Source: Escherichia coli | GTDB taxonomy: Bacteria > Pseudomonadota > Gammaproteobacteria > Enterobacterales > Enterobacteriaceae | DNA length: 64,000 nucleotides | NCBI RefSeq assembly: GCF_003334785.1 | Contig: NZ_QOWV01000001.1 | Direction: 5' to 3' (one strand) | In this document: piece after piece, positions 28,385-28,988 of the stretch | How the letters are laid out: each line of letters begins with the position of its first letter | Numbering within the stretch: position 1 is the first letter of the stretch | Made by a program: the position numbers and the translations under genes | Notes under the pieces: model-generated | Databases searched by the model: none | The model's input: only the letters and a program-made list of their open reading frames with translations | What the model was told of the DNA's origin: nothing

Positions 28385-28988
28385 TGTAGTAATCTCAAAC
28401 TTATATTGGGGTGGTTTGTTGAGGTAATAATAGAGCCTTAAATTCAGTTGTGCAATAGCCAGGAATGTAAGGAATTCAAAATTGTTCTTTATTTTGTGCC
28501 GCCAATAAATATCTTTTCATAAAATTAGCCAGAAAAGACGCGGCATATAGCCCTATTTACACCGATGATTTCGCAGCACGTGAGGTTAAAACTTCCTGAT
28601 TCATGTCACATTTTATGGGGAGATTATCGTAGGCTGACGACCTTTCAGTCTTCTGTATTAGTTGTGTTTACGAGAATTCCCTATTAAGCGAATGATGAAA
28701 AGTAGAACAGTCGCAATAAGAGCATGGACTTAGTATTGCACTATCTCCTGGAGGTCAACAGAGGGCTATTACTTGCGCAACAGGTTAAAGATTGTGAATA
28801 GTTACCAGCAGTCATTTACCCGCTTATAACAAGCGAGGCAGTTGTAATGATAGCTCAGAAGGATTATGCAAGGCTTCGTAAGGGAGAACGCATATACCCA
28901 CTTCTGTGCATACTGTTGAGCTGAAAAACTGACGAATTATGATAAACTCCAGCCAACTTTATTTCATATCATTGAGGGCCTGTGGCTG

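Follow-up and report, generated by a model that had tools for sequence, protein, structure and literature searches.

The stretch of Escherichia coli DNA analysed here (64,000 nucleotides; hereafter the window) contains hns at 27971-28384 on the minus strand and tdk at 28989-29606 on the plus strand. These two genes form a divergent pair flanking an intergenic region of 604 bp at 28385-28988, with a GC content of 0.396. The gene layout and coordinates given for this region in the original prediction are exact. The gap is 100% identical to positions 1292923-1293526 of E. coli K-12 MG1655 (NC_000913.3; window position = NC_000913.3 position - 1264538), for which RefSeq lists no annotated feature between hns and tdk. 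It is also found at 95% identity or more in 5,423 of 5,426 complete E. coli genomes.

The region had been described as unusually long and AT-rich. The first description is borne out, as the gap is the longest of the 56 intergenic gaps of the window (the runner-up has 488 bp), and the other divergent gaps, at 47-392 bp, are all shorter. The second holds only in a mild form. GC content is below that of all gaps taken together (0.448) and of the whole window (0.499), but four other divergent gaps are lower still, namely chaA/chaB (0.327), adhE/ychT (0.357), narX/narK (0.385) and ychN/ychO (0.386). Marked AT-richness is restricted to the 100 bp adjoining hns (GC 0.34). Since several nearby regulatory gaps are more AT-rich, the AT bias of the hns-tdk gap is ordinary.

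The end of the gap next to hns holds a promoter that can be placed exactly. A 221-bp hns fragment running from -159 to +62 has been defined by two primers (PMC7601328), which fall at 28579 and 28359 on the sequence, and these positions set the hns transcription start site (TSS, +1) at 28420. The sigma-70 core promoter occupies 28427-28455 on the minus strand, with the -10 hexamer TATTAT at 28432-28427, a 17-bp spacer and the -35 hexamer TTGCAC at 28455-28450. All bases specified in that study agree with the minus strand (T-12, A-11, A-8, T-7, C-13, C-4, C-3, C-1, A+2, C+3 and A+6, as well as the 17-bp spacer), and the same -10 hexamer was recovered by an independent consensus scan. Both hexamers are near-invariant in the 74 loci compared below, with a spacing that fits the mapped +1.

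The resulting 36-nt hns 5'UTR (28385-28420, minus strand; AACAAACCACCCCAATATAAGTTTGAGATTACTACA) is conserved across 74 Enterobacterales and carries a CCAAT box at 28405-28409 (+12 to +16) together with a Shine-Dalgarno (SD)-like GAGA. This CCAAT motif is Y-box-like and is presumably linked to CspA activation. A SNP at hns/tdk -22/-583, reported in two mutator strains evolved at 42 °C (PMC4166923), corresponds to window position 28406, within the motif. On the other side of the core promoter, directly upstream of the -35 hexamer, lies a conserved block containing AATGTAAGGAATTCAAAAT (28456-28485, minus strand; -36 to -65). From 28385 to 28485, column identity is mostly 70-100% in the 74 Enterobacterales loci, and order-wide conservation stops at the end of this block.

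These comparisons are based on one genome per species, which provided 80 hns loci. In 74 of these (the window counted) tdk is the divergent neighbour, across gaps of 296-909 bp, and the divergent pair and its long gap are therefore conserved across Enterobacterales. The pairing is not universal, as no tdk is present in the 3 kb upstream of hns in L061, L063-L065 (Lonsdalea), L071 and L075. The locus L071 is labelled Martelella alba, an alphaproteobacterial name, and encodes an Enterobacterales-type H-NS (84% identity), pointing to mislabelling or contamination of the assembly. In the plasmid collection, matches to the gap are either full-length, in E. coli records, or restricted to its first ~110 bp, which is as far as plasmid-labelled Salmonella and Klebsiella records match. 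The whole chromosomal hns-tdk gap is found in twelve E. coli entries listed there as plasmids (H81-H92). All are classed as 'non-mobilizable', some exceed 4 Mb, and they probably represent chromosomes, or pieces of chromosomes, with a wrong label.

Upstream of the order-wide block, a stretch of ~155 bp (28486-28641, minus strand) lies inside the published hns fragment that reaches -313. Its sequence drifts, with ~30-55% column identity within Enterobacteriaceae, while its length is kept. At its far side, the comparison of loci revealed a conserved island (CTTTCAGTCTTCTGTATTAG; 28642-28661), whose distal end is at about -241 from the hns TSS. The island consensus in other genera is ATATCAACCTTTTGTATTAG, with the palindromic GATAAATATC ahead of it. 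ATATCAACCTTTTGTATTAG agrees with the IHF core WATCAANNNNTTR, and the Fis/H-NS-like GGATAAATATC precedes the island consensus; in E. coli, the likeness to IHF, Fis and H-NS sites is degraded. The distal end of the island is 268-292 bp, mostly 276-282 bp, from the hns ATG in almost every Enterobacteriaceae locus of the comparison (Escherichia, Citrobacter, Yokenella, Pseudocitrobacter, Kluyvera, Superficieibacter, Pluralibacter, Enterobacter, Buttiauxella and Cedecea), whereas its distance to tdk in the same loci varies from 269 to 638 bp. As the distance to hns is fixed and the distance to tdk is not, the island belongs to hns. Furthermore, because the distance to hns is fixed while the sequence drifts, the intervening length is under constraint.

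Two further candidates were considered in this part of the gap. The island was examined as a second hns-directed promoter, with the TTGATA of Kluyvera-type sequences as its -35 hexamer, and was rejected as such because in Citrobacter and E. coli the spacers do not have a suitable length. Within the drifting stretch, a CRP-like site with two mismatches (CCTGATTCATGTCACA; 28595-28610, ~-175 to -190 from the hns TSS) corresponds to an in vitro CRP site found by Footprint-seq, centred at genome position 1293142, or 28604 in the window (PMC12871828). In the alignment, its TCACA half-site is retained by Escherichia and Citrobacter alone. The site is centred at ~-183 of hns, with ~350 bp between it and the tdk promoter, positions that do not fit the class I/II distances (-41.5, -61.5 and so on).

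On the tdk side, a conserved stretch at 28935-28955 surrounds a predicted extended -10 promoter on the plus strand (28940-28948), which consists of TG at 28940-28941, one unspecified base and TAAACT at 28943-28948, and has no conserved -35 region. It reads TGATAAACT in E. coli and TGGTACAAT in most other Enterobacteriaceae, and TGnTACAAT is kept upstream of tdk in other genera. The predicted promoter lies ~40-45 bp ahead of the tdk ATG, leaving a putative 5'UTR at 28949-28988 (plus strand) with a Shine-Dalgarno sequence GAGGG at 28974-28978. A -35/-10 alternative, TTGAGC-16-TATGAT at 28916-28943 on the plus strand, overlaps the extended -10 and is possible in E. coli. Judging from the sequence and its conservation, a short extended -10 promoter would drive tdk. 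Two terminator-like sites near 28980-29002 span the tdk start codon. Among the structures flagged by the terminator scan is a hairpin, CTGTG...CACAG, at 28980-28997 (plus strand), which is unconserved in other genera; a role as terminator was ruled out, as the tdk start codon sits in its loop. Downstream of tdk, K-12 carries an ISZ remnant (insZ pseudogene, 29888-30867) between tdk and adhE. Strain BE2-5 seemingly lacks this remnant, with adhE ~300 bp after tdk at its locus (L002).

Between these two sets of elements lies a non-conserved spacer of ~210 bp (28690-28900), the place of which is taken by lineage-specific filler elsewhere. Its column identity is ~0.3-0.5 towards hns and drops to 0.12-0.2 over 28805-28890. 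The gaps of ~900 bp (874-909 bp; L011, L012, L014, L021, L023 and L024), found in Kluyvera spp., Pseudocitrobacter and one Citrobacter, contain ~300 bp of additional sequence on the stretch from the island to the tdk promoter. This sequence is conserved at 75-84% within Kluyvera, is unrelated from one lineage to another, and yielded neither an Rfam match nor a conserved ORF. An origin of the central spacer as a mobile-element remnant was rejected: there was no phage match, the plasmid collection gave only the full-length E. coli copies and the ~110-bp matches described above, and repeats in the gap are short pairs at chance level. The spacer may simply hold the hns and tdk promoters apart.

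DNA curvature was predicted with a dinucleotide wedge model, using parameters after Bolshoy 1991. With these parameters, peaks appear in the gap at ~28530 (16.2 deg/turn, the 99.5th percentile of the window), at ~28745 (within the spacer, over ~28740-28750) and at ~28925. The strongest spans 28510-28545, about -90 to -125 of hns. Three peaks of at least 14 deg/turn are matched by 1% of dinucleotide shuffles (P = 0.01) and by 1.5% of 604-bp windows, and the mean predicted curvature of the gap is in the top 3.2% of such windows. A flat profile, which would have spoken against a curved promoter region, was thus not obtained. The peaks do not keep their positions across 19 representative genera, where only a mild bump directly upstream of the conserved block recurs, and positional conservation of the peaks was consequently dropped as a candidate feature. 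Computational support for a functional bend is moderate, since the profile is not flat but the positions of its peaks are unconserved.

Binding-site motifs were less informative. The canonical H-NS 10-mer TCGATAAATT has no match with two or fewer mismatches within 28385-28988, and hns has been listed as having imperfect H-NS sites only (Lang 2007). Consensus scans of the gap for Fis, IHF, CRP and Y-box sites gave no enrichment over shuffles (for the degenerate Fis pattern, 6 matches vs 6.7 +/- 3.6), and for this reason they were not taken as evidence. The published record on the hns promoter (Phns) is more extensive. H-NS autorepression, Fis activation and inhibition by ppGpp have been published for it, and H-NS footprints at hns are reported in papers cited by other studies. 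What has been treated as the hns promoter differs in extent: one group took the promoter and upstream regulatory region to -313 (28733; PMC7601328), and another study used a reporter covering -540 to +12, on which Fis, H-NS and CspA boxes are drawn.

Further information comes from insertion sequences. The hns/tdk region is one of three recurrent targets in laboratory evolution on glucose-minimal medium (PMC4786092, PMC4166923). The insertions recorded there, given as distances from the hns ATG and from tdk, are IS2 at -75/-526, IS1 at -112/-486 and -116/-481, IS5 at -258/-344 and an untyped IS at -111/-486. In the window these sites are at 28459-28463, 28495-28508 and, for IS5, 28642-28645, all of them between the hns -35 hexamer and the island. 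In another study, IS1 or IS3 within a 33-bp stretch upstream of hns was accompanied by strong up-regulation of hns, with 45 genes down (PMC9948715), and in one study insertions here lowered the expression of a plasmid resistance gene. A natural counterpart is present in the wild strain BE2-5 from egret faeces (NZ_CP032986.1; L002 1501-2881), in which a 768-bp IS1 interrupts the hns-tdk gap. Its 9-bp target duplication (CAAAATTGT) lies at 28477-28485, -57 to -65 of the hns promoter, at the exact edge of the order-wide conserved block and in the same zone as the laboratory insertions. Together with the laboratory IS2, IS1 and untyped IS, it forms a cluster at 28459-28508, outside which the IS5 site falls. 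Natural disruption is rare, as a contiguous hns-tdk gap is missing from no more than 14 of 5,425 records.

The simplest reading of the IS data is that displacement of an upstream module relieves the autorepression of hns. A competing account, which we consider unlikely, although the least so of the alternatives, implies no upstream repressive element: the insertions would raise hns through outward-reading or hybrid IS promoters, or would merely reflect a preference for AT-rich targets. IS elements are able to create hybrid promoters, a matter of general knowledge, and tdk and its surroundings have been described as an IS magnet owing to their AT-richness. Against this, four types of element (IS1, IS2, IS3 and IS5), at positions from -75 to -258, were selected in independent experiments. 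All sites are between the -35 hexamer and the island, with none in the distal spacer, which is equally AT-poor or AT-rich. Moreover, H-NS autorepression of the hns promoter has been established independently.

Displacement of an upstream module fits a mechanism in which the hns regulatory region would extend to about -241, comprising the drifting ~155 bp of kept length, the predicted bend at about -110 and the island at its fixed distance. In the literature, sites for H-NS (repressing), Fis (activating) and CspA are assigned to this region. H-NS bound to upstream AT-rich, bent DNA would contact the hns core promoter or spread to it, lowering its own transcription, and Fis would counteract this autorepression in fast growth. 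An IS insertion would separate the upstream DNA from the core promoter, so that repression would be relieved and hns would rise. Both what the island binds and the choice of looping or spreading as the mechanism are matters that we infer. More tentatively, the island and the length-conserved ~155 bp between it and the hns core promoter could act as an architectural module of fixed geometry, in which an IHF, Fis or H-NS nucleation site ~22 helical turns away could set how strongly hns autoregulation acts throughout Enterobacteriaceae. This is a speculative proposal drawn from sequence comparison, and we would put it well below an even chance. A module of this kind may not have been recognised before. 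If the proposal is true, the decay of the palindromic half in E. coli and Citrobacter would point to lineage-specific retuning of H-NS homeostasis.

A broader alternative treats the entire 604 bp as a single extended and curved region, bound by H-NS, through which hns would be autoregulated and tdk controlled as well. Several observations are in its favour. The predicted curvature peaks are distributed across the full gap, the mean curvature is high, the reporter study mentioned above took -540 to +12 as 'Phns', and a long gap is kept in 74 of 74 loci. In addition, mutagenesis and IS1 insertion in the AT-rich tdk are influenced by H-NS according to the literature. This alternative is nevertheless improbable. 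The stretch from 28690 to 28900 is unconserved and is represented in other genera by unrelated sequence of other length, the island is anchored to hns only, the positions of the curvature peaks are unconserved, and the canonical H-NS motif is absent. The original prediction of an extended, curved, H-NS-autoregulated hns promoter is consequently best confined to the hns-proximal ~280 bp, where it is supported by the published promoter, the non-flat curvature and the IS-linked up-regulation of hns. Applied to all 604 bp it is not supported: conservation and fixed spacing end at ~28661, the spacer is filler, and tdk accounts for the last ~50-90 bp.

The gap had also been suggested as a place where small transcripts could hide. 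A search against Rfam found nothing in the gap at E <= 1, and nothing in four other loci. Two sub-threshold Rfam matches, one frnS-like (27846-27947) and one rnk leader-like (27918-27995), were set aside, as both are outside the gap. Between the convergent galU and hns, a GC-rich hairpin at 27923-27947 with an 11-bp stem and flanking A and T runs resembles a bidirectional terminator, and the frnS match overlapping it (27.4 bits vs a gathering score of 60) is probably just this terminator. Sliding 100-nt folds on both strands (34 windows) reached z = -2.14 at best, as expected by chance. The promoter-like and terminator-like sites found by scanning are weak. Promoter-like sites show no excess (6 vs 4.5 +/- 1.8 in shuffles). 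Terminator-like sites number 6 vs 1.6 +/- 1.3 in shuffles, and only the one at 28631-28651 is wholly inside the gap.

The only hint of a transcript is an assembled 'other transcript' of low support, TCONS_00032083, on the minus strand at 28484-28823 (genome 1293022-1293361), in the supplement of a compendium of 3,376 RNA-seq samples (PMC10392735). That study reports 5,071 'other transcripts', most of them rare, and TCONS_00032083 has no value in any of the 44 sample columns examined. It is probably a product of pervasive or read-through transcription. As for proteins, the statement that no ORF has a ribosome-binding site requires one correction. An ORF of 25 codons at 28847-28924 (plus strand) has an SD-like GCGAGG 7 nt upstream, with a predicted anti-SD duplex of -7.5 kcal/mol. 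The same ORF is interrupted by stop codons, frameshifted or deprived of its start codon in 5 of 5 other Escherichia-lineage genomes (L003-L007) and, being broken in all the other Escherichia lineages compared, is probably not a gene. All five ORFs of at least 25 codons in the gap are broken within Escherichia, and 317 ORFs from 74 gaps contained no coherent ORF family.

An unannotated gene for a small RNA or a small protein, or a second hns promoter further upstream, is accordingly very improbable here: in favour are TCONS_00032083, the ORF with its SD-like motif, the terminator-like hairpin at 28631-28651 (plus strand) and the constitutive promoters that RNA polymerase holoenzyme SELEX lists in the hns/tdk spacer, and against it are the rarity of such assembled transcripts, the unconserved DNA under the 5' end of this one, the lack of any Rfam match or folding signal, the broken ORFs, and an MG1655 annotation in RefSeq that is blank here though it includes YchT, a product of only 17 residues.

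In summary, the hns-tdk gap is most probably a composite of known parts, neither a single element nor a hiding place for a gene. The locus is already characterised and represents ordinary known biology, and the present analysis leaves that picture unchanged. What is added is a map of constraint, in which the first ~100 bp are held order-wide, an island at about -241 is kept at a fixed distance in Enterobacteriaceae, tdk has a short, predicted extended -10 promoter, and the central spacer is filler. The DNA that sets the level of H-NS matters because this protein is the chief silencer of foreign DNA in enterobacteria.

The closest known system is Phns itself, which reportedly combines H-NS autorepression, activation by Fis, cold-shock activation by CspA and inhibition by ppGpp. 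The region analysed here is that same locus, with identical sequence (Falconi 1993, 1996; Ueguchi 1993; La Teana 1991; Brandi 2020). The published +1, -10, -35, spacer and discriminator all fall on 28420-28455, and the fragment to -313 covers 28385-28733. The hns-proximal half does not differ from the described system, while the remaining ~250 bp of the gap are outside it and unconserved. For tdk, the appropriate comparison is with extended -10 (TGn) sigma-70 promoters, which it resembles in its TG-n-TAAACT and in the conservation of this element while the -35 region is not conserved. It differs from the class in the overlapping TTGAGC-16-TATGAT alternative present in E. coli.

Promoters silenced by H-NS from a curved nucleation site, such as proU, bgl and virF, use an upstream or downstream site together with bridging. 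The hns promoter shares with them AT-rich upstream DNA, a predicted bend at about -110, a probable derepression on displacement and multiple imperfect H-NS-like sites. Unlike them, it has no TCGATAAATT at two or fewer mismatches and only a modest AT bias (GC 0.34-0.39), and it controls a housekeeping regulator that is expressed at a high level and tuned rather than silenced. A further comparison is with promoter rewiring by IS elements, as at bgl, which is activated when IS1 or IS5 relieves H-NS silencing. In both cases, an IS upstream of the core promoter goes with increased expression of an H-NS-repressed gene. The difference is that at hns-tdk the gene that would be derepressed is hns itself, and insertions here would therefore lead to more silencing genome-wide.
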